The position numbers and the translations under genes were made by a program. From contig MGVE01000020.1 of NCBI GenBank assembly GCA_001800315.1, positions 30,641 to 94,640 on the forward strand: 64,000 nt of DNA. The letters are read 5' to 3'. Positions within the stretch are counted from its first letter, which is position 1. The number at the start of each line of letters is the position of its first letter. The DNA comes from Elusimicrobia bacterium RIFOXYA2_FULL_47_53 (lineage in GTDB: Bacteria > Elusimicrobiota > Endomicrobiia > Endomicrobiales > XYA2-FULL-47-53). Below, piece by piece: positions 8,099-63,134 of the stretch. The notes under the pieces are model-generated. The model searched no databases. It was not told where the DNA came from and worked only from the letters and a program-made list of their open reading frames with translations.

Positions 8099-8290
8099 CT
8101 AAAGTCACCCTGAACGAAGTGAAGGGTCTCGTTTTTCATTCAACGACGAAGTTCTTCGTTCGCCACGGGTCGTCATTGCAGAATTGTTTAGTCAGAAGAC
8201 ACCAAAGTAACTGATTTTAAAGCAGTGATTATATATTGATATACCGAGAAGCGGCTTAACTGCCGGTGAGTCGGATATTCCAACACCTGA

Positions 8291-8568
8291 TTTTAACTTT
8301 CTTTGAGCGCTCAAAGAAAGTTAATAAAGAAACGCGCCCCCGCGAGCCATTCGCAAAAGTATTTTAGGCAGTCTTGCAAACTCCCTGCCTTGTCGGCAGG
8401 TCAAACAGGCAAGACTGAAGACCTCCAAAAAAACTTTTGCTCATAACCGGCCCGGAAGGGGTGTGACGACACAAAGAAGTCCGCCGTTCACTTACAACTA
8501 AAACTTATAACCTAAATGTTTGTCTACAATCCACAAAAACCCAGAACGACCACGCCACCTTACCGGAG
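8291..8568 (+). repeat. Structured interspersed element, copy A1 (palindromic head plus nested stem-loop body plus tail)
   Basis: Perfect 28-nt palindrome 8295-8322 (aactttctttgagc/gctcaaagaaagtt). Block 8336-8413 is identical over 78 nt to 29666-29743. The tail agaacgaccacgccaccttaccgg recurs at 29861-29886 and inverted at 62738-62764. Confidence 0.8.
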
Positions 8569-8596
8569 GATTAGGTATTTTCAGGCGAAATCCCTC

Positions 8597-9748: not shown

Positions 9749-10390
9749 ATGGCTTCATCTTTCAGGCCGCCAAGAGGATATATTTCCGAGAGTGACCCGC
9801 GCGTTTCCCAGGTGGGACACGCGGCGCCGCCCTGGCTTATCAACTATGCCGACTTAATGACGGAACTGGCCTGCTTCTTTCTTATGATCTACGCGCTTTC
9901 AGCGGCGATGTCCGGCACTTTGCAGAAAGTCAGCCAGGAAGTCAAAGAAGCGATGAAAGAAGAGCAGATCGCGGGCCAGGTCAAGATGACCAAAGAGGGC
10001 CTGCAGATAACTTTTGAGGAAAAAGAAAGCGTTTCCTTATTTCTTTCGGGCAGCGCCGAACTGACGCCGACAATGAAAGAATATATTGATAAAATAGTCC
10101 CGCCCCTGCGCCAGGGAGTGGATGTAAAAAGCAATCTTCTGGTGATAGAAGGGCATACGGACAATGTGCCGATAGCTACAAGCAGGTACGCTTCAAACTG
10201 GGAACTTTCCACGGCCCGCGCCACTACGGTGGTGCGGTATCTGGTTGATATCCATAAATTCCCTCCTGACAAAGCCGCGGCCATAGGCTACGGCGAGTTT
10301 AAACCCATCGCTGCAAATGACGCCGACGCGAACAGGGCTAAAAACCGAAGGGTTGTGTTTCTTATCAAAGTTTCGCCTCAGGGAGCCTGA
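9749..10390 (+). CDS. motB: Flagellar motor stator protein MotB (OmpA-like C-terminal domain)
   Basis: N-terminal PPWLINYADLMTELACFF with the channel Asp (codon 9851-9853). C-terminal OmpA-like peptidoglycan-binding motifs (NWELSTARATTVVRYL, NRRVVFLI). Confidence 0.85.
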   Translation: MASSFRPPRGYISESDPRVSQVGHAAPPWLINYADLMTELACFFLMIYALSAAMSGTLQKVSQEVKEAMKEEQIAGQVKMTKEGLQITFEEKESVSLFLSGSAELTPTMKEYIDKIVPPLRQGVDVKSNLLVIEGHTDNVPIATSRYASNWELSTARATTVVRYLVDIHKFPPDKAAAIGYGEFKPIAANDADANRAKNRRVVFLIKVSPQGA

Positions 10391-10506: not shown

Positions 10507-13260
10507 ATGGCAAAGAAGAATGTGTACTTTTTCGGCGGCGGAAAAGCCGACGGAAACGAATCAATGAAGAACCTGCTGGGCGGCAAAGGCGCCAACTTAG
10601 CGGAGATGGCCGGCCACAAAGCGTTGAAGCTTCCGGTTCCACCGGGTTTCACGATCACGACTGAGGTTTGCACCCATTATTACGCGAACAAACGGAGATA
10701 TCCCGCAACCCTCAAAGCCGAAGTTAACGCGGCTATGAAGAAAATAGAAGCCATTATGGGCAAAAAGTTCGGCGATGTAAAAGATCCGCTTCTTATGTCC
10801 GTTCGTTCGGGCGCCCGCAAATCCATGCCGGGAATGATGGACACGGTGCTTAATGTCGGTCTTAACGACGACACCATAAAAGGGCTTATTGAAAAAACCG
10901 GCAGCGAGCGTTTTGCTTACGACGCTTACCGCAGGCTTATAATGATGTATGCCGATGTCGTTATGGAAAAAGCCGAAGGCAGAGCTCCGGCGCGCGGCAA
11001 GGGCATCCGTAAACTGATGGACGAAAAACTCGTAGAACTTAAAAATAAAAAAGGCGTAAAGAGCGACACAGAGCTTACCGCGGAAGACCTCAAAGGCCTT
11101 GTAGCGGTATTTAAGGAAATGGTCAAAACCGAAATGGGCCAGCCATTCCCCGAGAAACCCGAAGATCAGCTCTGGGGCGGCATCGGAGCCGTGTTTATGT
11201 CCTGGAACGGCAAACGCGCCATAGAGTACCGCCGCATTGAAAGAATTCCCGACGAATGGGGAACCGCGGTGAATGTGCAGGCCATGGTGTTCGGCAATAT
11301 GGGCAACGATTGCGCGACCGGAGTCGCTTTCACAAGGAACCCCGGCAACGGCGAGAAGTACTTCTACGGCGAATACCTTGTCAACGCGCAGGGCGAAGAT
11401 GTGGTTGCCGGCATCCGCACGCCGTCTCCTATCAACGAGCAGTCAAAGAACGACCACTCAAGAAACCTTCCCACGCTTGAAAAAACAATGCCGCAGGTTT
11501 ACAAGGAACTCAATGATATCCAGAAACGCCTTGAGAACCACTACAAGGACATGCAGGACATAGAGTTCACCATAGAGAAAGGCAAACTATTCATGCTTCA
11601 GTGCCGTATCGGCAAACGCAACGGCACCGCGGCAGTGAAAATAGCGGCCGACATGTACAAGGAAAAATTTATTGACGCGAAAACAGCCATTATGCGCGTT
11701 AACCCGCAGCAGCTCGTTGAGCTTCTGCTCCCGATGATAGAGCCGAAATTTGAAGCCACAAGCAAAGTCATAGCCAAAGGGCTTCCCGCGGGCCCCGGCG
11801 GAGCGGTAGGCAGAGTGGTCTTTACATCGCACGAAGCGGTACAATGGGGAGAAAGAGGCGAGAAAGTTATTCTTGTCCGCGAAGAAACATCCCCTGAAGA
11901 TGTTGACGGAATGCATAAATCCCAGGCTATACTTACCTCCAAGGGCGGCATGACCTCGCACGCGGCGCTTGTAGCGCGCGGCTGGGGAAAATGCTGCATA
12001 GTCGGATGCGAAGGGCTTGAAATAGCCGACGACGAAAAGAGCTTCACGACAAAGTCGGGCGTAACCGTAAAAGAAGGCGACTGGATAACGCTGAACGGAA
12101 CCAAAGGTACCGTTTATGCCGGTAAGCTTGAACTTATGGACCCGAACCTGGAGCACAATACATCATACACCGAGCTTATGAAGCTCGTTGACAAAACGCG
12201 CACCTTAAAGGTCCGCACCAACGCCGACACTCCCAAAGATACGCAGAAAGCAATAGATTTCGGCGCCGAAGGCATCGGCCTTTTCCGCATAGAACATATG
12301 TTCTACGGCGAAGGATCGGACAAGCCGCTGTTCCTGCTGCGTAAAATGATAATGTCAAAAACTCTTGAAGAGCGCAAAGCCGCCCTCAAAGAGTTGTCAG
12401 TATTCGTCAAGTCGGATGTCAAGGCGACCATGGAAGTTCTTAACGGCTTCCCGCTTACCATCAGGCTTATAGATCCCCCGCTTCACGAGTTCGTGCCGCA
12501 CTCGGCCGACAAAGTAGCCGACATGGCAAAAGAACTCGGCATAAGCGTTGAAGACGCGAAAAGGCGCGGAGAAGCGCTTAAGGAAAACAATCCGATGCTT
12601 GGCCATCGCGGCGTCCGCCTCGGCGTCACCTATCCCGAAGTAACCGAGATGCAGGTGCGCGCGATACTGGAAGCGGCCGGCGAGCTCATTAAATCGGGCA
12701 AAAAAGCGGTTCCCGAAATAATGATACCGGTCACCTGCTCGGTAAACGAACTCAACGACCAGAAAGTATTGGTTGATGCCATCCTCGCGGATGTCCAGAA
12801 GTCGCTTGGCGTCAAGATACCGATGTCCTACGGCACCATGATAGAAATTCCGCGCGCGGCTCTGCTTGCCGATAAAATGGCGGAAACCGCTCAGTTCTTC
12901 TCGTTCGGCACCAACGACCTTACGCAGATGACCTTCGGTTTCTCAAGAGACGATATAGGCGGTTTCCTTCCTTCATATCTTGAAAGAAAGATATTGCCCT
13001 ACGACCCGTTCCAGACCGTTGATTTTGACGGCGTCGGCCAGCTGATGCAGTATGGAATTGAGCGCGGCAGAAAGACGAAAAAGGACCTTAAGATCGGAAT
13101 CTGCGGCGAACACGGCGGCGATCCGGCTTCGGTGGAGTTCTGCCACAACATCGGCATGAACTATGTCTCCTGCTCGCCGTTCCGCGTGCCCATAGCTCGC
13201 CTTGCGGCGGCTCAGGCGGCGCTTAAATACGGCGCAGGCAAAAAAGCAAAAAAGAAATAA
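10507..13260 (+). CDS. ppdK: Pyruvate, phosphate dikinase
   Basis: 917 aa. N-terminal ATP-grasp (GGKGANLAEM), phospho-His swivel motif GGMTSHAALVARGWGKCCIVG, C-terminal PEP-utilizer barrel (FFSFGTNDLTQMTFG, GICGEHGGDP). Strong RBS aaaaggag. Confidence 0.95.
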   Translation: MAKKNVYFFGGGKADGNESMKNLLGGKGANLAEMAGHKALKLPVPPGFTITTEVCTHYYANKRRYPATLKAEVNAAMKKIEAIMGKKFGDVKDPLLMSVRSGARKSMPGMMDTVLNVGLNDDTIKGLIEKTGSERFAYDAYRRLIMMYADVVMEKAEGRAPARGKGIRKLMDEKLVELKNKKGVKSDTELTAEDLKGLVAVFKEMVKTEMGQPFPEKPEDQLWGGIGAVFMSWNGKRAIEYRRIERIPDEWGTAVNVQAMVFGNMGNDCATGVAFTRNPGNGEKYFYGEYLVNAQGEDVVAGIRTPSPINEQSKNDHSRNLPTLEKTMPQVYKELNDIQKRLENHYKDMQDIEFTIEKGKLFMLQCRIGKRNGTAAVKIAADMYKEKFIDAKTAIMRVNPQQLVELLLPMIEPKFEATSKVIAKGLPAGPGGAVGRVVFTSHEAVQWGERGEKVILVREETSPEDVDGMHKSQAILTSKGGMTSHAALVARGWGKCCIVGCEGLEIADDEKSFTTKSGVTVKEGDWITLNGTKGTVYAGKLELMDPNLEHNTSYTELMKLVDKTRTLKVRTNADTPKDTQKAIDFGAEGIGLFRIEHMFYGEGSDKPLFLLRKMIMSKTLEERKAALKELSVFVKSDVKATMEVLNGFPLTIRLIDPPLHEFVPHSADKVADMAKELGISVEDAKRRGEALKENNPMLGHRGVRLGVTYPEVTEMQVRAILEAAGELIKSGKKAVPEIMIPVTCSVNELNDQKVLVDAILADVQKSLGVKIPMSYGTMIEIPRAALLADKMAETAQFFSFGTNDLTQMTFGFSRDDIGGFLPSYLERKILPYDPFQTVDFDGVGQLMQYGIERGRKTKKDLKIGICGEHGGDPASVEFCHNIGMNYVSCSPFRVPIARLAAAQAALKYGAGKKAKKK

Positions 13261-14060
13261 GAACAGATGTTGTCTTTGTAGCTGCCGAGCTTGCTCGGCT
13301 GATGTTGAACTTGCCGTCATTCCCGAGGTAGTAGTCGGGAATCCAGAATATAAAGAATGGCCCCTTGGGATTGTGGAAACCAGGGGGCCTTTTCTTTTCC
13401 GCATCTGGCAAAACAGACCATCCTGTCGCCTCTGTGCCGTCATCCTGAGCGCAGCGAAGGATCTTGCAGTTGCCGTCATTCCGGAATTGTTCTGTCCGGA
13501 ATCCATTAGCGCAAACGCTCGGAATCTGTTTTCCTGCCGGACGGCGTTGTTCGCGGGGCTTTGCCCCAGCACCCCGTTTTAACTTTCTTTGGATGTGCAA
13601 AGAAAGTTATAAAGAAACACACCCCGCGGACTATTTGCCTCATATTTTTTGGAAGCTGTGGAACTCGCCCGTCGGCTTCGCCAGGACGGGCTCAAACAGT
13701 CCTCGCTTAATTCCCAAAAAATAATCGGCGCATAAACAGTCCGAAAGGGGGTGAAAAACGCTTTACCCCCTCGCAATGAAACACAAAAAAACGCAATATG
13801 CCCCCGCCGTCATTCCTGCAGAAGCAGGAATCCAGAGGCGTGTCGTTTCTGTGCCGTCATCCTTTCATCTTTTGTAGCCGCCGAGCTTGCTCGGCTGACA
13901 TTGCCCTTGCCGTCATCCTGAGTCGGCTGCAACAGACGAAGGATCTCGCAGTTGCCGGGTCCATGTTTGTTTTTGCCGTCATTGCGAGTTGAGCGAAGCA
14001 ATCTCCAAGTTAACACTCGCAATATGTTTCTTTGTCGTAGAGGTGCCCCTTATCCCTTAC
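13261..14060. repeat. Non-coding hub packed with REP-like hairpin units (CCGTCAT leader family and others)
   Basis: Units start at about 13313, 13437, 13473, 13807, 13851 (truncated), 13909 and 13976. Each is ccgtcat(t/c) followed by a hairpin whose arms differ but stay complementary (attcccga/tcgggaat; attcctgc/gcaggaat; attccgga/tccggaat; atcct/aggat; attgc/gcaat). Also gccgagcttgctcggc hairpins at 13284 and 13880. Confidence 0.8.
13472..13790 (+). repeat. Composite element copy (C-unit plus palindromic head plus diverged A-type body, copy A3)
   Basis: 13472-13580 aligns with 29458-29567 (gccgtcattcc...cgcaaacgctcggaat.tgttttcctgcc...cgcggggcttt...cagcaccccgttttaactttctttgg). The body keeps TCAAACAG, CCAAAAAA and GGGGTG landmarks but has a different hairpin (gcccgtc/gacgggc, 13667-13691). 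Confidence 0.65.
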
Positions 14061-14097
14061 CGCTTACCCCTGCTCAATTCATTTGTTTCGCACCTCG

Positions 14098-14126
14098 TTG
14101 ACAACGCTTTTTAACCTTGTTATAAT
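14098..14126 (+). promoter_or_regulatory. Consensus sigma70 promoter upstream of the RAYT gene
   Basis: TTGACA (14098-14103), exact 17-nt spacer, TATAAT (14121-14126), with TGn extended -10 (tgttataat). Confidence 0.55.
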
Positions 14127-14186
14127 CCGCTTAGTTGCACACCTATCTCAATGGGCGGGGTAGCGGGGGAAATACATATCTTTAGG
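14117..14186 (+). repeat. 70-nt module R1 (promoter/5' leader-like), direct repeat of 14915-14984
   Basis: ttgttataatccgcttagttgcacacctatctcaatgggcggggtagcggggg... is near-identical to R2, with a few substitutions and indels. A truncated third copy lies at 15340-15375. Confidence 0.8.
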
Positions 14187-14197
14187 CGAACATAAGT

Positions 14198-14213
14198 GGG
14201 GACGGTTCTATTT
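14198..14213 (+). repeat. Left arm of perfect 16-bp inverted repeat bracketing the RAYT gene
   Basis: GGGGACGGTTCTATTT is the exact reverse complement of AAATAGAACCGTCCCC at 14892-14907. Confidence 0.85.
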
Positions 14214-14234
14214 AATTAAAATTATGGGGGGGAT

Positions 14235-14897
14235 ATGCCGCGTGGCGCAAGGATATTGCCTGAAATCGGAGTGCTTCACATTATAACTCGCGGGAATAAC
14301 AGGCAGAAAGTATTTAAAGATGATGCTGATTATAAAAAGTATCTTTGGTTGTTAGGGCTTTATAAGGAAGAACATGGTTTCAAATTGTACCACTATTGCC
14401 TTATGAGCAATCATGTCCACCTTATTATTGAGACCTCTCGGAAAACCAATCTTCCGAAAATGATGAAGCAGATTAATTTATCTTACATGCATCACTTCAG
14501 AAAGAAATATAAATACTTCGGGCATTTTTGGCAAGATAGATATAAAAGTTTATTGATCGAAAAAGACAGCTATCTTCTATCATGTGGAAAATATATTGAA
14601 CTTAACCCTGTGCGTGCAAGGATTGTTTCGAGGCCCGATGAATACCGGTGGCACAGCTATAATGTATATTCCGGAATGGGAGAAGATAAACTAATTGCTT
14701 TTGATCCGGTATACGAGAGCTTGGGAAAGACGCAAAATGAACGAGCTGAAAAATACAAAGAATTGACTTGTGAGAATATAAATTTAAATAGCCGTTTCAT
14801 AGGTAGCGAATCGTTTGTAAAAGATCAGGAAGAAAAGTTTGGTGTAAGGAATATTGGGGTCAGGAAAGGAAGACCATCCAAAGTTAAAAATAAATAG
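14235..14897 (+). CDS. REP-associated tyrosine transposase (RAYT) / IS200-like Y1 HUH transposase
   Basis: HUH motif (SNHVHLIIE), catalytic-Tyr helix (GKYIELNPVRARIV), N-terminal HIITRGNNRQKVF, FWQDRY. About 220 aa, typical of COG1943-type RAYTs. Confidence 0.85.
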   Translation: MPRGARILPEIGVLHIITRGNNRQKVFKDDADYKKYLWLLGLYKEEHGFKLYHYCLMSNHVHLIIETSRKTNLPKMMKQINLSYMHHFRKKYKYFGHFWQDRYKSLLIEKDSYLLSCGKYIELNPVRARIVSRPDEYRWHSYNVYSGMGEDKLIAFDPVYESLGKTQNERAEKYKELTCENINLNSRFIGSESFVKDQEEKFGVRNIGVRKGRPSKVKNK

Positions 14898-14907
14898 AAC
14901 CGTCCCC
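14892..14907 (+). repeat. Right arm of the 16-bp inverted repeat (overlaps the RAYT stop codon)
   Basis: AAATAGAACCGTCCCC. The stop TAG at 14895-14897 lies inside the arm. Confidence 0.85.
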
Positions 14908-14914
14908 TTTAATA

Positions 14915-14984
14915 TTGTTATAATCCGCTTAGTTGCACACCTATCTCAATCGGCGGGGAGCGGGGAAAACACATATCTATAAGG
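14915..14984 (+). repeat. 70-nt module R2
   Basis: ttgttataatccgcttagttgcacacctatctcaatcggcggggagcggggaaaacacatatctataagg, ending 8 nt before the ATG of the next ORF (RBS aaggggg). Confidence 0.8.
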
Positions 14985-14991
14985 GGGTATC

Positions 14992-15315
14992 ATGTCACAG
15001 CTTGTATTGTCAAATGGTTTCTGGGTATTTGCATGCGGTGTAAGCGCGATATGGGCAGCGTATGGCGGATTTTGTGAATATGAAGAGAAAAAAGAACATG
15101 AAGTTAATATTTGTCCACATGTCTTTGTCGCAATAGTATCAGAATTGCTCGGAGCTTTCGCGGGATTTTGTTGTGTTAGAATATTGGCAAGAAGACTAAT
15201 GATTACTGGTTTATCATTTGGAGTATTTGAAGTTGCTTTGCTAATAGGAGCATTTGTCGGAATAACCGGATATACATACAAAATAGGTGAAATAATAGAA
15301 AAGTACGCAGAGTAA
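14992..15315 (+). CDS. Small hydrophobic protein (about 3 TM), unknown function
   Basis: 107-aa ORF with an RBS. Hydrophobic segments FWVFACGVSAIWAAYGGF, VFVAIVSELLGAFAGFCCV, LSFGVFEVALLIGAFVGI. AT-rich codon usage like the island. Confidence 0.5.
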   Translation: MSQLVLSNGFWVFACGVSAIWAAYGGFCEYEEKKEHEVNICPHVFVAIVSELLGAFAGFCCVRILARRLMITGLSFGVFEVALLIGAFVGITGYTYKIGEIIEKYAE

Positions 15316-15339
15316 ACGCAAAGAACCCACAATGTAAGC

Positions 15340-15375
15340 GCACACCTATCTCAATGGGCGGGTAAGCGGGGAAAA
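15340..15375 (+). repeat. Truncated module R3
   Basis: gcacacctatctcaatgggcgggtaagcggggaaaa matches the core of R1/R2. Confidence 0.7.
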
Positions 15376-15658
15376 TAATTATAATTAAGTTAATAAATTC
15401 TGCATATTGCATGTTACAATAAACAAAAAAACTGTTCTAATAGTTTGTTAAGTTAGTGAAGCCTGACACCATTTACAAGCGCACTCCCTCATACCGCATT
15501 AAAGTCGCTCAAAGCAAATTCCTGAACGCTTTGGCATGAAGATGCACTAATCATTAAAACATTTATTAGATTTGCTATGTCCATTTTAGTTGCCAAACCT
15601 TCCAACTAGGCGGTGAATTAAAATACAAAAAATAAAGTTACTAAAGTAAAAATAAATG

Positions 15659-15696
15659 TTGACAAAACGATACATTTATAATATGATAAATGTATC
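15659..15696 (+). promoter_or_regulatory. Promoter with overlapping palindromic operator for the cassette genes
   Basis: TTGACA (15659-15664), 17 nt, TATGAT (15682-15687). Inverted repeat gatacatttat (15669-15679) / ataaatgtatc (15686-15696). A third GATACA half-site lies downstream (atgatacac). Confidence 0.5.
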
Positions 15697-15743
15697 ATTT
15701 ATAACTATAATGATACACTAAATGAATTAAAGGAGAATGTGTT

Positions 15744-16241
15744 ATGCAATTTGAACCAGAGTTGAATGCCATGAACGACATTTTGAAGGCTTTAAAGGAA
15801 CTTGAGCCCGAGGCTCAAGAAAGAGTTGTTAATTGGGTGACTGGAAAACTTAATTTGCCTAAGGCCTCGGCTATTTTAAATAAGGGGCAAAAACCGAAAG
15901 AAAATATTATTGAAGACAATATTAACAATAATACCCTTGCGGAGGTATTTGCAGCAACAAATCCAAATAGTGACTCGGACAAAGTGCTTGTGGTTGCCAC
16001 TTATATTCAAAATAGGGATAGTAAAGATGAGTTAACAGGGCGTGAAATCAATAAAGAGTTGGTACATCTTGGACATGGGGTAGGGAATATTACAAATGCA
16101 ATATCAGGATTAATGAATAGAACTCCAAAACTTATGATACAAACACGTAAAGATGGCAGTACTAAACAAGCACAGAAAAAGTACAAAGTTACAATAGAGG
16201 GTTTAAATGCTTATAAAAAGATGTTCGGGAAGGCTGAATAA
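15744..16241 (+). CDS. Hypothetical protein with C-terminal winged-helix-like module
   Basis: 165 aa. N-terminal helix, Asn-rich linker, then DKVLVVATYIQ...LTGREINKEL...NITNAISGL...KKYKVTIEGLNAYKKMF (wHTH-like pattern). RBS aaaggag. Confidence 0.55.
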   Translation: MQFEPELNAMNDILKALKELEPEAQERVVNWVTGKLNLPKASAILNKGQKPKENIIEDNINNNTLAEVFAATNPNSDSDKVLVVATYIQNRDSKDELTGREINKELVHLGHGVGNITNAISGLMNRTPKLMIQTRKDGSTKQAQKKYKVTIEGLNAYKKMFGKAE

Positions 16242-16274
16242 TAAGATTAAAAACAATATATTTTGGAGTAAATT

Positions 16275-16970
16275 ATGATTCCGATGGAAAAATTAAGTGA
16301 CTATGTTCATAAGAGTTCTCTATCTCAATTAGATAAATTACTTCTTATTTTAGCTGTTGAGCATACAAAACCAAAGCAGATTGGCGAGATAAGGAACATT
16401 GGGCGAAACGCAGGGCTTGTTAAAATATACAAGTGGAATATTCCCGATGCCCTTACAAAATCACGAGACAAAGCGATCCACCTGCCTAAGGGTTGGATCA
16501 TCAAAGGTCCAGGAAAAGACAGAGTACGAAATATCATAAATGTTTTGGAAATTCCCAAGACAGAGGAAACCCTTATTGGTACATATGTAGATAAAAAAAG
16601 AATTGTCGAATTAAAAAATATTAAATGCCATTACGATTTGACTAGATTAGTTCAAATGCTTTACGAGTTAGATGATGCTTCTAGTCGTAATAATTATATT
16701 TCAGTTATTATGTTAGTAAGAGCAATATTAGATCACGTGCCTCCATTATTTGGCAATAAAAATTTCCTTGAATTTGCAAATAACTATAATGGTGGAAGGA
16801 GCTTTAAGGAATCGATGGTAAGGTTGCAAGAGTCATGTCGTAAAATTGCAGACAGTTATCTGCATGGACAGATTAGAACGAAGGAAAGTTTGCCTAATAG
16901 AATACAAATAAATTTTTCAAATGATATTGATTTGCTATTATCAGAAATAATAAGAATAAATAGTCAATAG
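16275..16970 (+). CDS. Hypothetical protein: N-terminal wHTH paralogous to the upstream ORF plus helical C-terminal domain
   Basis: 231 aa. DKLLLILAVEH...IGEIRNIGRNAG resembles DKVLVVATYIQ...LTGREINKEL of ORF 15744. The C-terminus is helical (YISVIMLVRAILDHVPPLFG ... LQESCRKIADSYLHGQIR). I recognise no family. Confidence 0.55.
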   Translation: MIPMEKLSDYVHKSSLSQLDKLLLILAVEHTKPKQIGEIRNIGRNAGLVKIYKWNIPDALTKSRDKAIHLPKGWIIKGPGKDRVRNIINVLEIPKTEETLIGTYVDKKRIVELKNIKCHYDLTRLVQMLYELDDASSRNNYISVIMLVRAILDHVPPLFGNKNFLEFANNYNGGRSFKESMVRLQESCRKIADSYLHGQIRTKESLPNRIQINFSNDIDLLLSEIIRINSQ

Positions 16971-17099
16971 GTGCAAAACAATGGAGGCGCTTCTATTTGT
17001 AGCAATGGTGTCAGGCTTCACTAACTTAACTAACTTATTGGAACTAACTGAACTACAATGCAACACAATGGAATTTGAAGCCGAAGTTAAGGAGTTAAA

Positions 17100-19698: not shown

Positions 19699-19797
19699 TT
19701 GAAAAAGGTGTCTTTGCGAGGCCGCAGGCCGAGGCAATCTCGCTGTTTCGTCGGAAAGACGAGATTGCTTCTCTCCCTTCGGGAGTTCGCAATGACA
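19699..19797 (+). repeat. MITE-like element copy B1 (relative of 62989-63134)
   Basis: Shares ttgaaaaag, gtctttgcgagg, gcaatctcg...cgagattgcttc (a 10-12 bp hairpin) and gttcgcaatgaca with the element at 62989-63134. Confidence 0.7.
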
Positions 19798-19914
19798 AAC
19801 GCGGCAAATATGATCCCGAATTACACCCCGGGGGTGTAATAAGGTTATGGCTCTTATCTGGTGAGTTGACAGAAATTACAGGTTATAGTAAAATTACCGC
19901 ATTGAAAACTTAAT

Positions 19915-20010
19915 AGTTCACGAGGGAGGCCGTAAAACGGCCTGAGAGTTCCGCACTTTAAGCGGATTACCTTAAGAACCTGATCTGGTTAATACCAGCG
20001 TAGGGAGGTG
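19915..20010 (+). promoter_or_regulatory. TPP (THI-box) riboswitch aptamer
   Basis: Hallmark blocks ggcctgagag and aacctgatctggttaataccagcgtagggag (consensus CUGAGA ... ACCUGAUCUGGAUAAUACCAGCGUAGGGA), upstream of thi4. Confidence 0.85.
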
Positions 20011-20050
20011 ATAAATGATTTTTGGGGCCGTCGGCCCAGCTTTCAGAACT

Positions 20051-29369: not shown

Positions 29370-29457
29370 GCTGGTAATTATAGCCCAAAATAATGGCTTT
29401 GTCAAAACGACGGGACGGCCGAGTTATAACGAAATAGATATCTCTAATCATGTGCTG

Positions 29458-29886
29458 CCCGTCATTCCCGAGTTTCTTTGTCGGGAATCCAATGTCGCAA
29501 ACGCTCGGAATATGTTTTCCTGCCGAACAGCGTTTGTCGCGGGGCTTTTGACCCAGCACCCCGTTTTAACTTTCTTTGGGCGCCCAAAGAAAGTTAATAA
29601 AGAAAGGCGACGCCTCACCATCTCGGCGTCCTCATGGAAGTCCGCACTTATTCGTGCGGACATTCGCCCCCGCGAGCCATTCGCAAAAGTATTTTAGGCA
29701 GTCTTGCAAACTCCCTGCCTTGTCGGCAGGTCAAACAGGCAAGCCTGAAAGCATCCAAAAATACTTTTGCTCATAACCGGCTCGGAAGGGGTGTGACGAC
29801 ACAAGAAGTCCATTGTTCACTTATAACCTAAATGTTATGTCTGGAATCCACAAAAACCAAGAACGACCGCGCCGCCTTACCGCAGG
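29458..29886 (+). repeat. Composite element copy (C-unit plus palindromic head plus A-type body, copy A2, with a 60-nt extra hairpin insert)
   Basis: 29458-29567 aligns with 13472-13580. Palindrome 29568-29595. Insert 29603-29662 includes hairpin tccgcac/gtgcgga (29641-29660). 29666-29743 is identical to 8336-8413. Confidence 0.8.
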
Positions 29887-29939
29887 TTTGGGGGTTCTTT
29901 TGCGGGCATGATAATTCACAAAAAATTTTCAAAAAAACC

Positions 29940-30013: not shown

Positions 30014-30640
30014 ATGCCTATGAACAAAAATATGCGCAAACTAATCGCGGTTTTTGTGGTTTTTATCCAGCTTTCAATGCCGGCTTTTTCTTCTTTTGGG
30101 GCCGGCTCTCCGGCTTCTGCGCCGGGAGAAGAGACGGCCTCGGTGCAGCAGGTGGACGGAATTTCAGCGGTTTTTGTCATAATTAATTCCAATATAAGCC
30201 AGCAGATGAGAAGGCTGGTAGATCTTGCCTGCCTCGCTGCAAGCCTCGCGCATACCCCCAAACCAATCAGCCACGAAAATACCAGGAATACAGGGGCGGA
30301 TGGTTCCGTTTCGCCGTCAATAGTTATTTCCAATTCCTTTTCCGCCGACAATTCAGTCAAAAATTTCGCGCCCGGCAATGACATAGACGGCCGGATGCTT
30401 GTCAGTATCGTGCTTCTCTGCGCTCTTTTTGCCGCGGTATTTTTCACCGGGCTAATGAAGTGGAAGAGGTTTTTTTACCTTTTGCCCAGAGGAAGTATTG
30501 ACGATATTATAATCAATTTTAACAGTATGGGTAAAACCCTCATTGAGCTGAATCCAATGAGGGTTTTTCTTTTGCCCGCAGAAGATAATAAATCACTATA
30601 TCCTGGAGGATCTTATGTTCCGCGAAAACAAGTTCGTTAA
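30014..30640 (+). CDS. Secreted/membrane protein, unknown function, overlapping the start of the giant ORF
   Basis: Signal-peptide-like N-terminus (MRKLIAVFVVFIQLSMPAFS), a C-proximal TM (MLVSIVLLCALFAAVFFTGLM), and a 26-nt overlap with the giant ORF start. Confidence 0.5.
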   Translation: MPMNKNMRKLIAVFVVFIQLSMPAFSSFGAGSPASAPGEETASVQQVDGISAVFVIINSNISQQMRRLVDLACLAASLAHTPKPISHENTRNTGADGSVSPSIVISNSFSADNSVKNFAPGNDIDGRMLVSIVLLCALFAAVFFTGLMKWKRFFYLLPRGSIDDIIINFNSMGKTLIELNPMRVFLLPAEDNKSLYPGGSYVPRKQVR

Positions 30641-33600
30641 ATTTATCGCCTGCACGATCGTAGCGTGTTTCAGCTACAGCTTTGTGCTTTTTGAGCCGCT
30701 CTACGGCGCGGTGCAGGAATACCGTGACGGGGCGCTCGCTCGGGCTATGTCCTCCAAGATGGAGCGTTTTGTCCTGCCGTACCGCTATGGCCGGGTTATG
30801 GGCGGCAGCTATTCCGGAGGAGAGAGGCTGGTGGTGTTTGTTCAGGATCTCCACTGCCATCCCGAGGTTCAGAGAAACATAAGCGAAATTGAAAACCTTC
30901 TTGACAAGCGGTACGGTCTGGAAAAGATATTCGTTGAAGGCGCCCCGATGGGCAGGGTGGACACAAAGGTGCTTGACACAATGCCCGCCCGCATCAAGGA
31001 TAAAGTGTTGGAGAGCTTATTAGACCAGGGGCTGCTGAGCGGAAGCGAATATTACGCCGTAAAAAATAAACAGGATAAGCTCTACGGCCTTGAAGAGTGG
31101 GGAACCTATCTCGGGAACTACAACAGGATAAAAAGATTAATAGAGAGCAGGGACGGCCGCGTGAAAGCCGCTCAGGATGTCGCGGCGCGCATTGAGGCCA
31201 TAAAAAGAGAACACCTCTCGCCCGAACTCAGGAAGCTTGAGCGGTATATCAAAAAAGCCGAAGCGCCGGGCGCCGATAAGTCCGCGCTGGCAAAAACCGG
31301 CAAGAAAAGCGAAGAGCACTATTTTGAGCTGGAAAAGCTCGGAGCCAAAGTCAACGAGGATGTAAGCCAGTATCCGAACCTGAAGAAATTTATTGATATG
31401 GCGCGCTTCGGCCGGGAAATAAATTATAAAAAACTTCCCACTCAGATGCAGGAATATGTGGAAGAGCTGAAAAAAGTCGTGCCCTTCGGCGTTTACCGCC
31501 AGCTGACAAAAAAACTTGAGGAGGGAAACCGCGAGGAAGAGTACTATTTCGCCATGAGCGAGATCGCGGCGCAGTACGCGCCTTTATTAAACACAAGATA
31601 CCCGGAAGTAAATAAATTCCTGGCTTACATAAGATTAAACTACAGCATAAATCCCATATACCTGGTAAACGAGGAGAAGGGTTTCGGGGAGAGAATACTT
31701 GATAAAACCGCCAAACGCCTCGTGGACAAAGAGCTAATATTTTTAAGCCGCATGAGCGAGGCTTTCGCGGGCATGGCCGATCTTAAAGTTACGCCGGAGG
31801 AATACGGCTATTTTAAGGAAAATGTCGGCAGGTACCGCGCCCTGCTTCAAAAATACATAAGCAGGGATGAGCTTTCTGATGCCATGGCGGTTATGGGCGA
31901 TGAGGATTTATATAAATATTTTGAAGTCAATATAGGCAGAAATGACATATTCAGCTCGGTCATTATTGACAAGGAGCAGGGATCCGGCGGCGCCGCGGCA
32001 ACCCTCGGTTATGAGGCCGTGCTCTCCAACATAAACAAGTTTTCAAAGATTGATGTGGTTGTCACGGGAGGCTTTCACAGCGAGGTCGTCAAGGCCCTGG
32101 ATAAAGCCGGCATTTCTTATGTCGCGGTAACGCCAAACGCCACAAAGATGTTTGATGAAGGCGTGTACGAAAGGCTGATGGTAGGCAGGCTTGAGGCAAA
32201 AGATATTATGCGCGCTTCTTTAGCCCCGGCGCTCATTTCCGCGGGAGCTACGCCACAGCAGGCAAACGCTCTTGTTACAATGCTGGCCGGGCTTACATTT
32301 TCAGAAAATTCCTCAAAAAACCGGGCTGAGATAGACAGAGGAATAAATGAGCTTGTTGAGTGGTTTGAAAGCGCGAACCTGCAGGCAAAAACCACCCTTG
32401 AAATAGACCGAAGCAAAAACGCGGTTACCATCGGCATAGGGTTGGATAAATGGCTTGTTTCAGCTGACCCGGGCAACGGCAAAAAAATTAAGATGGTCAG
32501 GAAAACCCCGGAATTCAAAAATAAAATTGGGGAATTGCTGTATAAAGTTGATGTTTCCCGCAACGGGAGAACCATTGGATTTGATGCATCGGCGCAGTCA
32601 ACGGCAGAAGATGATGTGCCGCTTGACCCAAGGAAGAAAGTATTCGCGAAGACAAGCGCGGTTGAGGATAAATTCTACAATGAGTTCAGCAAAATGAGCG
32701 AGTTGGAAATACAGGATTACCTGAGAAATAAGATGGACTCATCATCAGGCGACCCTCTTGCCGCTGTTACGACTCAAATTGAAAAAGTTATGGACACGGA
32801 TACAAATAATAAGTTTGCTTTATTGGAGGCCTTCTTTCGCGTTCTTGAGGCCAATGACGGTTACCTGATAGGACATTACCTGGGTAATATTAAAGCAAAT
32901 ATTGAACAGATGACCGACGGACCGATTGTGACCCGCCTTTACAGCCTGCAAGACCAGGAAAAAATAATGGAAGACCTGTTCAAGCAGAGGGCTTTTGCCC
33001 GCAGGATTTTTGAGATATGGGAAACCAGCCTTGCTTCGCAAGGCAGAGTTAAGACTGACAGCTCCCAAAGCGGTTTCGCGGATCCCCTTTTGCTTATGGG
33101 GCTTGCCGGCGCCGCCCTGCTGTTTGGCGCGCTTGGTTTCGTGGGCCTGGGAATAATTTCTTCGGCTTTACTGCATGACATTTATTATTTTTACATGCAA
33201 AACGGATCCTTAAACGGTTACGGTTTTGCCGGACTGCCGCGGCGGGTAGCGAAGCGTTTTACCGTACTGCTGGCCCTTGCCAGGGGAAAGCCGGAAATAA
33301 TATCCGGTGAAAAAGTTCCCGGTATAAACGCGGCCCTCCTGAGCTTAAAATTGTCACCCGAAAAATTTAATGAAATGGTGCGCGGAAAGCTGGTTGCAGG
33401 TATAACCGCTCTGGGGCAGATGAAAGACAGATCACACGGTATTTATGTCAGAATGCCGGTTGAAACTGCCATGGGTGTTTTATCAGACGAAGACGGCTTT
33501 GCGGCGATAAGGGAAAAATTTAGTAATTTGAAGAATCCGTATATAGGGGTTGCGGAATGCGGCGGTGTCAGTGAAATGAATTATGGTTATCATAACGCAA

Positions 33601-36600
33601 TTCCTGATTTGCTGATACCTTTACAGGTTGCGATAGTCAACGAGTTTCTTAAACCGCTTGGAGGCATGGCGGTTCGCTCTTCCGGGACAAGGATTTATTT
33701 TGTGTGCCCCGGTAATATAAGGCCCGAGAAAATGGAAGCCGTAAGAAATGGGTTGCGGGAAATACTAGCGCGCTCAATAGATGATTTGCTCGCGTATGAC
33801 GAGGTAACATTTGATGAAGCTGTGGTTGACCCAAAAAATTCAGAACAGGTCAAAGCGGCTGTGGCCGGGGTTTCATCCGTGCTGGCCGGACAGGATAAAA
33901 TCGCGGGAGTCTTTCAGTCCCGGGACGGAGTTTTCCTGTTGTATGAGCAAAAATACCGCGGAGATGTTTTAAACGCCCTGAATCTCAATAAAAATGGCGG
34001 CGCGGCGCTCAGGCTGGTGAATAAATCCGGCGGCAGCAGTAACACAGGAAGCATTAGAAATATGGTTACGGATTTTACGGTTGTGAAGGCACAGGGCACG
34101 GATAGTCTGGAAACCGCGATAGTAAAGGCGGAAATAATCCAACAGTCCCTGCCATCCGGAATTGTGTTGCCGGAAGGCAGCAGAAATGAGTTCACCGTTG
34201 ATAGGGATGCCGTGTCAAATCTGGACAGGATTGAAACCGAGGCTGTTTCCCGCAGGATCGCGGCAAATGAAGGGAATGATTATATCAAGCGCCTGGTGAA
34301 TAACGACGGCAGCGGATGGTTTGAAAACGGGCTGGTCAGCGGTTCAAGGTTGAATGATGTGCTCGCAAGCTTCCTGAAATATGAAAACCCTCCGCAATTT
34401 TTTAAAGCCCAGATGAAGTTCAGAATAACCGATAATTCCATAGTGGGAACCAAACAGAGCAGGGCAGGCTGGGATGATGTTAAGTGTACCGATTACGGTT
34501 ACGACAAGGAAACCGATACATTCAATTACAGGATTTTCCGCAGGCTTTACGGCGCATTTGTCAGTCAGAAAATAATCCGGGCGCTGACGAGCGCAATAGA
34601 CAGTGAAGTGCTGAAGATAAAACGAAATGAGGTGCCTCTTGTCAGCGGAACCGAATACTTTTCATTTATTCCCACGCAGGAAGGTTTTGGCGGTTTGACC
34701 GAAAAGCAGTTTTCCGTAATAGCGGATAAAAGCACAAACGCTATCAGAAATCTCTTGTCCGGCGAAATCGGTTTGTCCGGGATAGAGCCGGAAATATCCA
34801 TGCATGTAATTAATGCCGGTGACGCGGGCCGTTTCCAGCTCGCGGATGTTGCTAACAGACTGTCGGAGGCAGGCGAAAGCGATGATCTTTTTGACGAGGT
34901 TAAGAGTCCCTCCGGAAATATCATAAGACTGTTTAATGTTAGCAAGGCCGGCGCTCTCATGAGAAATACCGAGAGGATAAGATTAGTTAAGCGTTATCTT
35001 GGCCGCGTGGCTCAGCTGCACCGCCATATGTATCTTGTCAGAAATAAATTAAGAAGTTCTCGTGAAAGTACGGAGCGTTTACAGCTTAACAATGAGCTTA
35101 AGGATTTAGAGCTTGAGGAAAAAGATCTCAAGCTTGAATTAACCGGCAAGATTAACTCAAGGCTTGAAGAAGAAAAGGCGAGCCTCAAATCCGAGGGCAT
35201 AAAAGACGCCATGACCGGAAACCTTGTGGAAGGCAAGATAACATACAGCAAGGCGCATTTTGAAAACATAGTCCTAAGGGACGCTATCGGGAACGCGAAA
35301 CGAAACAATAAAAATATTTTCTTTTCAATGTTTGACGGCGATAATTTCAAGTCCATCAACGATAAATACGGGCACGAAGCCGGCGACATTGTGATCAAGG
35401 CTTTCGCGATAGTGGCCAGAAAAGTCTTAAGGTCAACAGATCAGCTCGCCAGGTTTGGGGGCGATGAGTTTGCCGCTATTGTTGAGTCCGGCGATCATGA
35501 TTTTGATTCCTCGGACGCCGAAAACCGCCTGACGGCAGCAGAGAGGCTCAGAAAGGCATTTTCTGATTCGGATTCTGTCATGCTTTATGCTGAAATAGAG
35601 AAAATGGACAGGGCTTTGGCGGACAAAATGAGGGCTGATAAGCGCACTTTTTCCATCAGTGTTGGCGTAGTGCGCTATGATCCTCAGGATAAATCTTTGG
35701 CGAATATGGGAGTCAAAGAAATCGCAAGTATTTTAAAGAAGCGCGCTGATGTGGCGTTATATTACGCCAAGGAAGGAAAATATGTTAAAGACGGTGAAAT
35801 GCACCCCTCGGCAAATGGCGGCAGGAATAACAGTTTGGTTTGGGATCCTGTCATGGGTGACAAAACACCGGAGGAGAAACGCAGGGAAGAAAGGGGCTTG
35901 CTGATAAACGAGATCTCAAAAATATTGCCAGAAGGCCTTGTTGCGGATGTTGTCAGCGGTGTCCCCGAGGAGGTTACGCGCATTCAGCAGAAAATGTCGC
36001 GGTATAATTTCGGAGTATTCTATTCGGGCGGAAAGATATGGATTTCCAGTGAAGCGGATGAAAAGATTGTATTGGGAAGCGCTCAACTCGCGAAAAATAC
36101 CGATAAGTCCCTGGGGTTTCTTAAAGACAAAAATGACCTCAATGAACTTTTGCGTGACAATATAGAATTGTATTATATAACAAATACGGATATATTGCTG
36201 ATTTCGGAAAAAGAACCGGACGAGAAGTCCGTTTTTGATTCAATATCCGGTGATGAAGGTTTAATAGGAATAGGTTTGCTGGCGGAAATGTCGCTGGTTG
36301 TCATTGGGATCGGTTTATTCCTGGCGGGCAACCCGATAACCGCGGGGTTTGTTGGATTTGCGGCGGCCGGTTTGTTCGTTCTTGAATTTGTCGTAAGCCG
36401 TGGAAAAAAATCCGCTCCGGCCCGTTCTTCCGCGCTAAGCCCCGAGGCGTTAAGGCAGAGAGCCGTTGAAAGAGCCGTGCTGGCCAGCGGCGAAAAGCTT
36501 CCCCGTGCAAGAATTTTAGGCCTGGTAGGCGACCTGGCCAGCCGCACTCCGTCAAAGAAACAAGCAGGCGTATTGGGCAACGAGAAAGGAAATACAGTTT

Positions 36601-51416: not shown

Positions 51417-51496
51417 TTTAAGCCGGATTTTGAGCAGCCGTTTTTTGCAGCTGCCGGGCTTGCCCGGCTCAATACGGAACATTAAAGGAATATTAA

Positions 51497-62710: not shown

Positions 62711-62988
62711 AACGCGATAGCTCCCCGGACCCCTGATCCTCCGGTAAGGCGGCGCGGTCGTTCTGATCTCCCGAAGGGAGAGAAGAATCTTGCTTTTCCG
62801 TCATTCCGGAGAGTTTCTGTCCGGAATCCATCAAGGACTGTCATCCCTGTAGTTGCAGTGCGGCGAATAAGCCGCACAAGCTTGCAACGGGTGCGAGATG
62901 TGAGCACACACAGGGATCCAGAAAAACCACTGGATACCAGCTTCCGCTGGTATGACGACACGAAGAAGTCCGCCGTTCACTTACAACT

Positions 62989-63134
62989 TGAGTCAATTGA
63001 AAAAGTGTTTCAGGCCGTCTTTGCGAGGAGTGCAACGACGAAGCAATCTCGTCGCTTCAGGCGGAAAAACGAGATTGCTTCACCCTGCGGGTTCGCAATG
63101 ACAGGGTCTTATTAAGGGTTTTTCAACTGACTCA
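62989..63134 (+). mobile_element. 146-bp MITE with 16-bp imperfect TIRs and 10-bp flanking direct repeat, nested in an A-type element fragment
   Basis: TIRs are tgagtcaattgaaaaa (62989-63004) and the reverse complement of tttttcaactgactca (63119-63134), 15/16 matching. ACTTACAACT occurs at 62979-62988 and again at 63135-63144. The core is homologous to 19699-19797. Confidence 0.65.

Follow-up and report, generated by a model that had tools for sequence, protein, structure and literature searches.

CGTC-Tagged Palindromes Next to a Y1 Transposase Gene in an Elusimicrobia Genome and a Predicted Ssn-Type Nuclease Partner

The Hairpin Spacer between ppdK and the Y1 Gene

The window described here is a 64,000-nt stretch of contig MGVE01000020.1 from Elusimicrobia bacterium RIFOXYA2_FULL_47_53. 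It contains an 800-bp spacer of short hairpins that is bounded by ppdK (10507-13260) and the gene for a Y1 transposase (14235-14897). The original prediction held that at least seven units in this spacer begin with CCGTCAT and run into hairpins, and that these repetitive extragenic palindromes (REPs) form a REP-RAYT pair with the adjacent transposase. Seven CCGTCAT heads were located at positions 13314, 13437, 13473, 13807, 13854, 13910, and 13976, all seven on the forward strand and within the range 13314-13982. In six cases the head leads into a hairpin whose arms are those that had been listed; the seventh, at 13854, is a truncated head. The heptamer occurs 19 times in the window compared with 5.3 ± 2.6 times in shuffled sequence, and none of 100 shuffles reached 19. 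The Y1 gene does adjoin the cluster, starting 230 bp past the last unit (at 14235). The features of the spacer are as follows.

13314-13345, forward strand: CGTC unit 1, C-CGTC / ATTCCCGA / GGTAGTAG / TCGGGAAT / CCA; DNA fold of -6.7 kcal/mol, z -3.3
13356-13400, forward strand: terminator-like hairpin with a T-rich tail, GGCCCCTTGG...CCAGGGGGCC TTTTCTTTT, read from the sequence
13437-13465, forward strand: CGTC unit 2, short-stem, CGTC / ATCCT / GAGCGCAGCGA / AGGAT / CTT
13473-13505, forward strand: CGTC unit 3, CGTC / ATTCCGGA / ATTGTTCTG / TCCGGAAT / CCA
13807-13834, forward strand: CGTC unit 4, canonical CGTC-1 form, CGTC / ATTCCTGC / AGAA / GCAGGAAT / CCA; DNA fold of -11.6 kcal/mol, z -5.4
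13854-13863, forward strand: truncated unit 5, the 10-nt head CCGTCATCCT alone, with no 3' arm
13910-13947, forward strand: CGTC unit 6, short-stem with a 20-nt loop, CGTC / ATCCT / ... / AGGAT / CTC
13976-14005, forward strand: CGTC unit 7, short-stem, CGTC / ATTGC / GAGTTGAGCGAA / GCAAT / CTC

Unit 1 is placed in the 3' region of ppdK, ahead of the terminator-like hairpin. This hairpin was not called by a consensus terminator scan because of its 11-nt loop, but it is probably the end of the ppdK transcript. The truncated unit 5 is followed by a hairpin module that resembles a GTAG-tagged REP, after which the identical 10 nt are found again at 13910. The spacer is a mosaic cluster of CGTC-tagged REPs and other modules rather than a simple array.

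The folding of the units as DNA was calculated with a nearest-neighbor model. The three units with 8-bp stems were strongly favored over shuffled sequences (z of -2.7 to -5.4), whereas the three units with 5-bp stems were no better than shuffles (z of +0.7 to -1.7). The stem of the short-stem units could be lengthened within the loop (ATCCT-GA-GC-GCA-GC-GA-AGGAT) by tandem G·A pairs that are capped with a GCA triloop of the GNA type. The d(GCGAAGC) mini-hairpin, a known structure, is the model for this proposal.

The window was lengthened by approximately 9.7 and 8.7 kb, and thus 82 kb of this genome were surveyed. Approximately 25 units are spread over eight spacers in the 82 kb, and seven of these spacers have no transposase. 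Every intergenic gap of at least 450 bp carries units, and no gap shorter than 420 bp does. The cluster beside the Y1 gene is the largest (7 of the ~25 units), and a spacer that separates a PorV-like gene from a CHASE2 cyclase gene (62.7-63.4 kb) equals it in unit density. The additional copies that had been reported near 8170, 29458, and 62799 are real, although the one at 8170 is degenerate. Two pairs of units are in a tail-to-tail arrangement. The units outside of the cluster are listed below.

8102 (within 8102-8206), forward strand: variant unit, AGTC ACCCT GAACGAAGTGA AGGGT CTC
8170, forward strand: degenerate unit, CGTC ATTGCAGA..., which opens a composite repeat at 8167-8575
19708-19798: tail-to-tail doublet, with units at 19708 and 19798 (reverse strand)
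29459-29491, forward strand: CGTC unit with no transposase near, CGTC / ATTCCCGA / GTTTCTTTG / TCGGGAAT / CCA
62798-62958: mosaic of three units with no transposase near, the first at 62798-62830 (forward strand) with stem ATTCCGGA
62837-62921, forward strand: second unit of the mosaic, TGTC ATCCCTGT (59-nt nested palindrome) ACAGGGAT CCA
62923-62958, reverse strand: third unit of the mosaic, ATACCAGC GGAA GCTGGTAT
63014-63104: tail-to-tail short-stem doublet, CGTC TTTGC...GCAAT CTC (63014, forward strand) and TGTC ATTGC...GCAAT CTC (63104, reverse strand)

Previously, REPs were divided into GTAG- and CGTC-tagged super-families (Di Nocera, De Gregorio & Rocco 2013, PMC3733652). The CGTC repeats have an unpaired CGTC or TGTC (or CCTC) head, a stem of 8-9 bp that begins with AT, a loop of 4-5 nt, and a CCA tail. 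The super-family (CGTC-1 to CGTC-4) includes the Neisseria dRS3 element (CGTC-1) and the Rickettsia elements RPE-4 and RPE-6. These repeats were given for five phyla, of which Elusimicrobiota is not one, and as a family with no dedicated transposase; no RAYT gene was found to be flanked by them (PMC3733652).

The earlier description of the hairpins as REP-like, extragenic, and carrying a leader other than GTAG holds, and the leader is the CGTC tag, which is read by all seven heads of the cluster. The units share with the CGTC super-family an unpaired CGTC or TGTC head, an 8-bp stem that starts with A-T and T-A pairs (units 1, 3, and 4 and those at 29459, 62798, and 62958 on the reverse strand), a CCA tail, a multicopy and extragenic distribution, several stem "sequence types" within one genome, and the absence of a RAYT link. 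The CCA tail is found in six of the six window units with 8-bp stems. Three differences were observed. Most loops are 8-9 nt in length (GGNNNNAG or RWKKTTCTG), compared with the published 4-5 nt; among the window units with 8-bp stems, only those at 13807 (AGAA) and 62958 on the reverse strand (GGAA) have 4-nt loops, and the others have 8 or 9 nt. Units 2, 6, and 7 have outer stems of only 5 bp, which nevertheless begin with AT, and tails of CTC or CTT. Finally, the cluster is a head-to-tail arrangement, and such arrays were found to be negligible in the published survey (PMC3733652).

A metagenome scan with the unit pattern of the window returned at least 120 loci. Among the matches listed, 103 of 134 further units carry the CCA tail, and a loop of 9 nt is seen in 96 of the 134 further tagged hairpins, the scan having been seeded with units whose loops are 8-9 nt. 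Within the same matches (L085-L204), a unit of the form CCGTCATTCCCGA-N9-TCGGGAATCCA is very frequent in soil, sediment, and groundwater, mostly in tail-to-tail heterodimers with GTCACCCCCGA or GTCATCCCCGA as the partner.

The long spacers of short hairpin repeats that are interleaved with other repeated modules also resemble the NIMEs of Neisseria and the BIMEs of enterobacteria. The modules found here are a GTAG-like hairpin, a composite repeat of ~400 bp, and nested palindromes, and their kinds and order are specific to this lineage, unlike those of NIMEs and BIMEs. The BIMEs are built from GTAG REPs in alternating orientation, unlike the cluster described here.

Stem Covariation and the Ssn-Type Nuclease P0136

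Covariation was measured with 23 distinct 8-bp-stem units of this organism (184 stem cells). These units were chosen for having no more than one mismatch, so that the percentage of paired positions is true by construction and the informative part is the variety of compensated stems. Compensatory changes were found in three of the eight stem pairs, and pair 6 shows all four Watson-Crick pairs. The number of double-sided cells was 25, compared with 6.2 ± 2.0 for shuffled stems, and none of 500 shuffles reached 25. No one-sided G-T (G-U) changes were found among the 184 stem cells. All 23 distinct units have GTC on the 5' side of the stem and C on its 3' side, and the first base of the head is C, T, or A. 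The first two stem pairs (A-T and T-A) and the CCA 3' of the stem are also invariant.

The arms do covary, as had been noted for the cluster. The further claim was that this covariation argues for selection on structure. Watson-Crick covariation with no G-T intermediates fits a constraint at the level of DNA, and selection on a DNA hairpin is compatible with the pattern, but arm-to-arm correction through template switching inside the palindromes would yield the identical pattern. Four further assemblies are 100% identical over 16-20 kb that span the spacer and thus give no information on polymorphism.

The closest functional precedent is the Neisseria NTS (CGTCATTCCCGCGMAVGCGGGAATCYRG, which contains dRS3), defined as CGTCATTCCCGCG..GCGGGAATC. 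It is bound and cut by SsnA, a single-domain GIY-YIG nuclease of 94 amino acids (PMC11893778, Nat Commun 2025). SsnA acts on single-stranded DNA only and on one strand only. Cleavage depends on the 3 nt that precede the palindrome, and binding depends on the C just after it; residues Y6, Y17, and E64 were mutated experimentally. Homologues of ssnA across bacteria are bracketed by "Ssn-related motifs" (SRM), and in N. meningitidis the system reduces the integration of repeat-bearing transforming DNA (PMC11893778). The invariant positions of the units described here coincide with the determinants that were measured for SsnA.

An alternative is that the hairpins act in transcripts, as 3'-end stabilizers, terminators, or processing sites for genes such as ppdK, and that the covariation reflects RNA structure. 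Units 1-7 share the sense of ppdK, unit 1 lies between its stop codon and the terminator-like hairpin, and many REPs are located downstream of genes and are probably transcribed (Di Nocera 2013, PMC3733652). However, six of the seven units are past the terminator-like hairpin, and elsewhere the units are found in both orientations relative to the neighboring genes. The stems lack G-U intermediates, and a search of Rfam at gathering thresholds matched only a TPP riboswitch elsewhere, with no match in the cluster or the 8-kb spacer at E ≤ 1. In addition, SsnA does not bind the NTS as RNA (PMC11893778). We consider an RNA-level function to be unlikely.

One locus from the metagenome scan (L167) contains the exact unit types of the window together with a GIY-YIG gene that is flanked by them. 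Its product, P0136 (95 amino acids), has the same sequence as the entry [quoted passage not shown]. This organism is the group of metagenome-assembled genomes (MAGs) that contains the proteins of the window, and the accessions of P0136 fall in the same number blocks. P0136 matches the Pfam GIY-YIG family (3e-15). Against an N. gonorrhoeae chromosome, which is filed as a plasmid in PLSDB, it gave a single match with 51% identity and an E value of 5e-26; the published criterion for homology is E < 1e-10. The matched gonococcal open reading frame (ORF) sits among 7 exact NTS and 11 dRS3 copies within 1.3 kb and is therefore taken to be ssnA. Residues Y7, Y18, and E65 of P0136 align with Y6, Y17, and E64 of SsnA. 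No significant NCBIfam family was found for P0136, a single-sequence search of the PDB gave no match, and a motif search for a GIY-YIG gene within the window found none. Two N. gonorrhoeae entries of 2.17 Mb each (NZ_CP119142.1 and NZ_CP119140.1) are listed as plasmids in PLSDB and are evidently chromosomes.

The ssn-like gene (10001-10288 in locus L209) is preceded within 140 bp by units at 9862 (reverse), 9877 (forward), 9940 (reverse), and 9960 (forward). It is followed by a unit at 10322 (reverse), 34 bp past the gene, and the 20-kb locus holds 27 units in total. An identical copy of unit 3 from the window is found beside this gene. The gene lies within a Tad-pilus cluster, between the genes for the ATPase and the membrane platform (T2SSE and T2SSF families; L209 and L210). 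Between the L209 and L210 MAGs, the copy number of a 344-bp tandem block with three units differs by one, and there is also an 83-bp indel. These differences indicate that the repeat arrays are changing within the population. The 59-nt nested palindromic insert in the loop of unit 62837-62921 recurs at the ssn locus (L167, ~1960-2040) with arms that differ but are compensated, ATTCC/GGAAT. In five further contexts of P0136 homologues (L212-L216, from digester and wastewater metagenomes, Zixibacteria, and Ignavibacteria), hairpins with a (C/T)GTC head are found on both sides of the gene. The Ignavibacteria homologue is bracketed by TGTC ATTCCTGC GAAA GCAGGAAT CCA, whose stem is of the type found in unit 4 of the window.

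From these results, the cluster probably consists of CGTC-tagged REPs of the family that includes Neisseria dRS3/NTS and the SRM, with an Ssn-type nuclease partner encoded elsewhere in the genome and the Y1 element as a separate entity. Each unit would be a directional hairpin of single-stranded DNA, with an unpaired (C/T)GTC head and a C immediately 3' of a stem whose first two pairs are A-T and T-A. The hairpin would form in incoming transforming DNA or in a replication or repair intermediate and would serve as the binding site for a small nuclease of the Ssn family with a single GIY-YIG domain. Such an enzyme is expected to cut a few bases upstream of the head and to ignore the duplex and the opposite strand. 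The predicted partner is P0136, on another contig, in the Tad-pilus cluster and amid the densest patch of these hairpins; it would bind and cut these units. The Y1 element, with its own inverted repeats (GGGGACGGTTCT...), would be part of an AT-rich island that adjoins the hairpin-filled spacer.

The likeness to the NTS/SRM-Ssn system consists of the directional hairpin with its HGTC head and the C after the stem, the dense hairpin clusters at particular loci, and the single-domain GIY-YIG protein of ~94 amino acids with hairpins on both sides of its gene. The differences are the other phylum, the published pattern that is not matched, the location of the nuclease gene in a Tad-pilus cluster, and the unrelated Y1 element that adjoins the cluster; moreover, the system is known here from sequence.

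Several observations weigh against this assignment. The SRM pattern HGTCWYN(0-2)YYVSBRHN(0-5)WNVSBRGN(0-2)RNCYNB gave one unrelated match in the 82 kb (0.3 expected) and matched none of the units, most of which have loops of 8-9 nt and not 4-5 nt. The units are assigned to the Ssn system by their architecture and by the flanked homologue and are outside the published SRM pattern in the strict sense. The three short-stem units of the cluster, with their CTC or CTT tails, differ from the units closest to the nuclease gene and may have a different protein as their partner. The evidence that this genome holds the nuclease gene, which is outside the window, comes from MAG bins and shared repeat types rather than from a closed chromosome. 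The pairing of P0136 with the hairpins in this lineage is predicted. Finally, a Nitrospirota MAG (L021) also has three CGTC/TGTC units that immediately precede the left inverted repeat of its Y1 homologue.

It is also conceivable that a site-specific recombinase or an IS110-type transposase uses the palindromes as target sites for attachment or insertion, in the way that the filamentous prophages of Neisseria use dRS3. The dRS3 element was reported to be a target of a phage recombinase (PMC11893778), the loop of the unit at 62837-62921 has received the 59-nt nested insertion, and a composite repeat of ~400 bp runs from a unit to a half unit. However, gene calling in the 82 kb and in the 20-kb ssn locus revealed neither a recombinase nor an IS110-like gene, and recombination leaves the conservation of the unpaired GTC and of the C that follows the stem unexplained. 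Such a role for the palindromes appears extremely improbable.

The Y1 Element and Its Inverted Repeats

The Y1 element consists of the transposase gene and a pair of terminal inverted repeats (TIRs).

14198-14217, forward strand: left terminal inverted repeat, GGGGACGGTTCTATTTAATT
14235-14897, forward strand: Y1 (HUH) transposase, RAYT-like and of the TIR-flanked "TIRYT" kind, 220 amino acids, with the HUH motif at H60-V-H62 and a putative catalytic Y120
14888-14907, reverse strand: right terminal inverted repeat, GGGGACGGTTCTATTTATTT, which overlaps the stop codon and matches the left copy at 19 of 20 positions

The protein matches the Pfam Y1_Tnp family (1e-18; 68 bits against a cutoff of 23) and scores 67 bits with the NCBIfam REP_Tyr_transpos family, under the cutoff of 80. 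A single-sequence search of the PDB gave no match, and the profile of the Y1 family matches the E. coli TnpA-REP structure 4ER8 with an E value of 1.4e-5. Given the HUH motif and the conserved tyrosine, the enzyme looks active.

Homologues were collected from 80 Y1 loci in species-representative genomes of Elusimicrobiota, Omnitrophota, Nitrospirota, Thermodesulfobacteriota, Patescibacteria, and others, covering more than 10 phyla. In the window and in about three-quarters of the 80 homologues, copies of the inverted repeat GGGGACGGTTCTATTT enclose the gene. In ~61 of the 80 loci, counted as an exact GGGACGG pair 700-890 bp apart, the repeat (A)AAGGGGACGGTTCTATTT has its left copy ~45 bp before the start codon and its reverse complement at the stop codon or overlapping it. 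Of 84 loci, 71 contain the 12-mer GGGGACGGTTCT, and the repeat AAAGGGGACGGTTCTATTT is nearly invariant over more than 10 phyla (L005-L084), with TTGACA often directly after the left copy. REPIN-like doublets of the repeat that enclose no gene are found in L048, L060, and L038.

This organization resembles the TIRtron, in which Y1 genes of the TIRYT kind are flanked by terminal inverted repeats that share GGGGWSAS (Di Nocera 2013, PMC3733652). The likeness extends to 20-bp inverted repeats at a fixed distance, a right copy over the stop codon, and gene-less doublets in some genomes. The repeat core GGGGACGG agrees with the published consensus at 7 of 8 positions (G for A at position 7), and L081 has GGGGACAG. 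The differences are this single position and the finding of no additional copy of the inverted repeat in the 82 kb of this genome.

The original prediction, that the adjacent Y1 enzyme recognizes the CCGTCAT hairpins in single-stranded DNA and spreads them, with the cluster as its "home" array, must be considered against these results. The enzyme is intact and related to the E. coli TnpA-REP, and the largest cluster in the 82 kb abuts its gene. The sequence CCGTC is common to the Y1 inverted repeat and the hairpin head, and the copy-and-paste of hairpins is not explained by a GIY-YIG nuclease alone. In addition, the three units of the Nitrospirota locus (L021, 2431-2570), which comprise units with 9-bp stems and 5-nt loops and one short-stem unit, are in an equivalent position; this is the sole other such case in the 80 loci. 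As in the REPtron or REPIN-RAYT systems (E. coli TnpA-REP and the Pseudomonas RAYTs), a Y1 HUH enzyme that resembles those of the RAYT clade lies beside extragenic hairpins with an unpaired 4-nt tag. However, the hairpins in the window are on one side of the gene and in one orientation, the tag is CGTC and not GTAG, and the flanks of the gene itself are other sequences.

The homologues point in the same direction. The family brackets itself with its own GGGGACGGTTCT inverted repeats at a fixed distance and has its own doublet repeats in some genomes. Only 5 of the 80 loci have bona fide CGTC units no more than 3 kb from the Y1 gene. In two loci (L021 and L070) the units are in the adjacent spacer, and in no locus do they flank the gene on both sides. 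The region downstream of the Y1 gene in the window (14898-15743) has no CGTC units. Conversely, a Y1 ORF is found in 1, and the transposase inverted repeat in none, of the at least 120 CGTC-unit loci among the metagenome matches listed. Seven of the unit-bearing spacers in the 82 kb have no transposase, and the one at 62.7-63.4 kb is equally dense. The GC content over 14.0-17.0 kb is 31-41%, compared with 48-54% around it, and thus the AT-rich island of the Y1 gene differs in composition from the hairpin cluster, which at 52-54% is like its surroundings. The island (14000-17000) is probably acquired DNA. As noted above, RAYT genes flanked by CGTC repeats were not found in the published survey. 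The proposed REP-RAYT pairing is thus not sustained and is very unlikely to be correct, and the placement of the cluster beside a RAYT-like gene looks coincidental.

A functional coupling between the Y1 family with GGGGACGGTTCT ends and the Ssn hairpins can also be envisioned, in which the Y1 enzyme would mobilize the hairpins in trans or the element would insert preferentially at hairpin clusters. Since Ssn can only cut, a separate enzyme would have to provide the strand transfer that multiplies the CGTC hairpins. The basis for this proposal is that a hairpin cluster abuts the left end of the Y1 element in two unrelated phyla (the Elusimicrobiota window and the Nitrospirota locus) and that the CCGTC core is common to the inverted repeat and the hairpin. 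Because of the second case in Nitrospirota, a small probability is kept for this link.

Besides the Y1 element, the AT-rich island holds three ORFs (14992-15315, 15744-16241, and 16275-16970) that match no family in Pfam or NCBIfam. A direct repeat of ~75 nt (core GCACACCTATCTCAATGGGCGGGGTAGCGGGG) is found before the Y1 gene (14110-14184), after the right inverted repeat (14908-14982), and after the first of these ORFs (15340-15387). The first copy overlaps a perfect match to a sigma-70-type promoter.

14098-14126, forward strand: promoter match, TTGACA-17-TATAAT

The 75-nt repeat could be a repeated promoter or leader module. It was also considered as the ends of a transposon, and this was rejected since it is missing from all 80 homologous loci. 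The closest Y1 homologue (L005, 69% identity) shows no synteny with ppdK.

Other Modules and Implications for the Family

The GTAG-like hairpin (GTAGCYGCCGAGCTTGCTCGGC) is found twice in the spacer.

13275-13312 (hairpin at 13281), forward strand: GTAG-like hairpin module, copy 1, TTTGTAGCTGCCGAGCTTGCTCGGCTGA..., which runs into unit 1
13871-13908 (hairpin at 13877), forward strand: GTAG-like hairpin module, copy 2, which runs into unit 6

A third copy at 51445-51475 (hairpin at 51450) has the compensated stem GCCGGGC/GCCCGGC, with GCAG in place of GTAG. This hairpin was considered as the REP of the transposase, which is unlikely; only 3 copies are present in ~110 kb of the organism, and both of the copies near the gene are upstream of it.

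The composite repeat of ~330-400 nt is found at 8167-8575 and 29456-29892, where it opens at a CGTC unit and closes at a half unit. A partial copy at 13473-13800 has unit 3 as its first module. Two copies (8335-8474 and 29665-29804) are 96% identical over 140 nt. A JGI contig (L206) joins the window at ~8570 directly to ~29665 through this repeat; the contig represents either a variant with a 21-kb deletion or a chimeric assembly. A single ORF of 4774 amino acids lies at 30615-44939, and the cut-off product that is called from this same start in L206 (listed with 3716 amino acids) has a GGDEF match. The TPP riboswitch mentioned above (19912-20024; Rfam RF00059, 77.8 bits) is upstream of a Thi4-like gene, and the CGTC doublet at 19708-19798 just precedes it. 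A tRNA scan found none.

The CGTC/NTS-Ssn system now reaches the Elusimicrobiota. By analogy with N. meningitidis, its biological effect would be the shortening of homologous single-stranded DNA and hence a reduction in recombination. The widespread sub-type with loops of 8-9 nt escapes the published search pattern, and therefore surveys that are based on this pattern undercount the family. A RAYT-like gene that adjoins hairpin repeats is insufficient for the assignment of a REP-RAYT pair; here, the transposase's own inverted repeats and the nuclease on another contig give the correct pairing. The repeat-rich, clonal groundwater population, with MAGs that differ in copy number, could help to show how these hairpins multiply.

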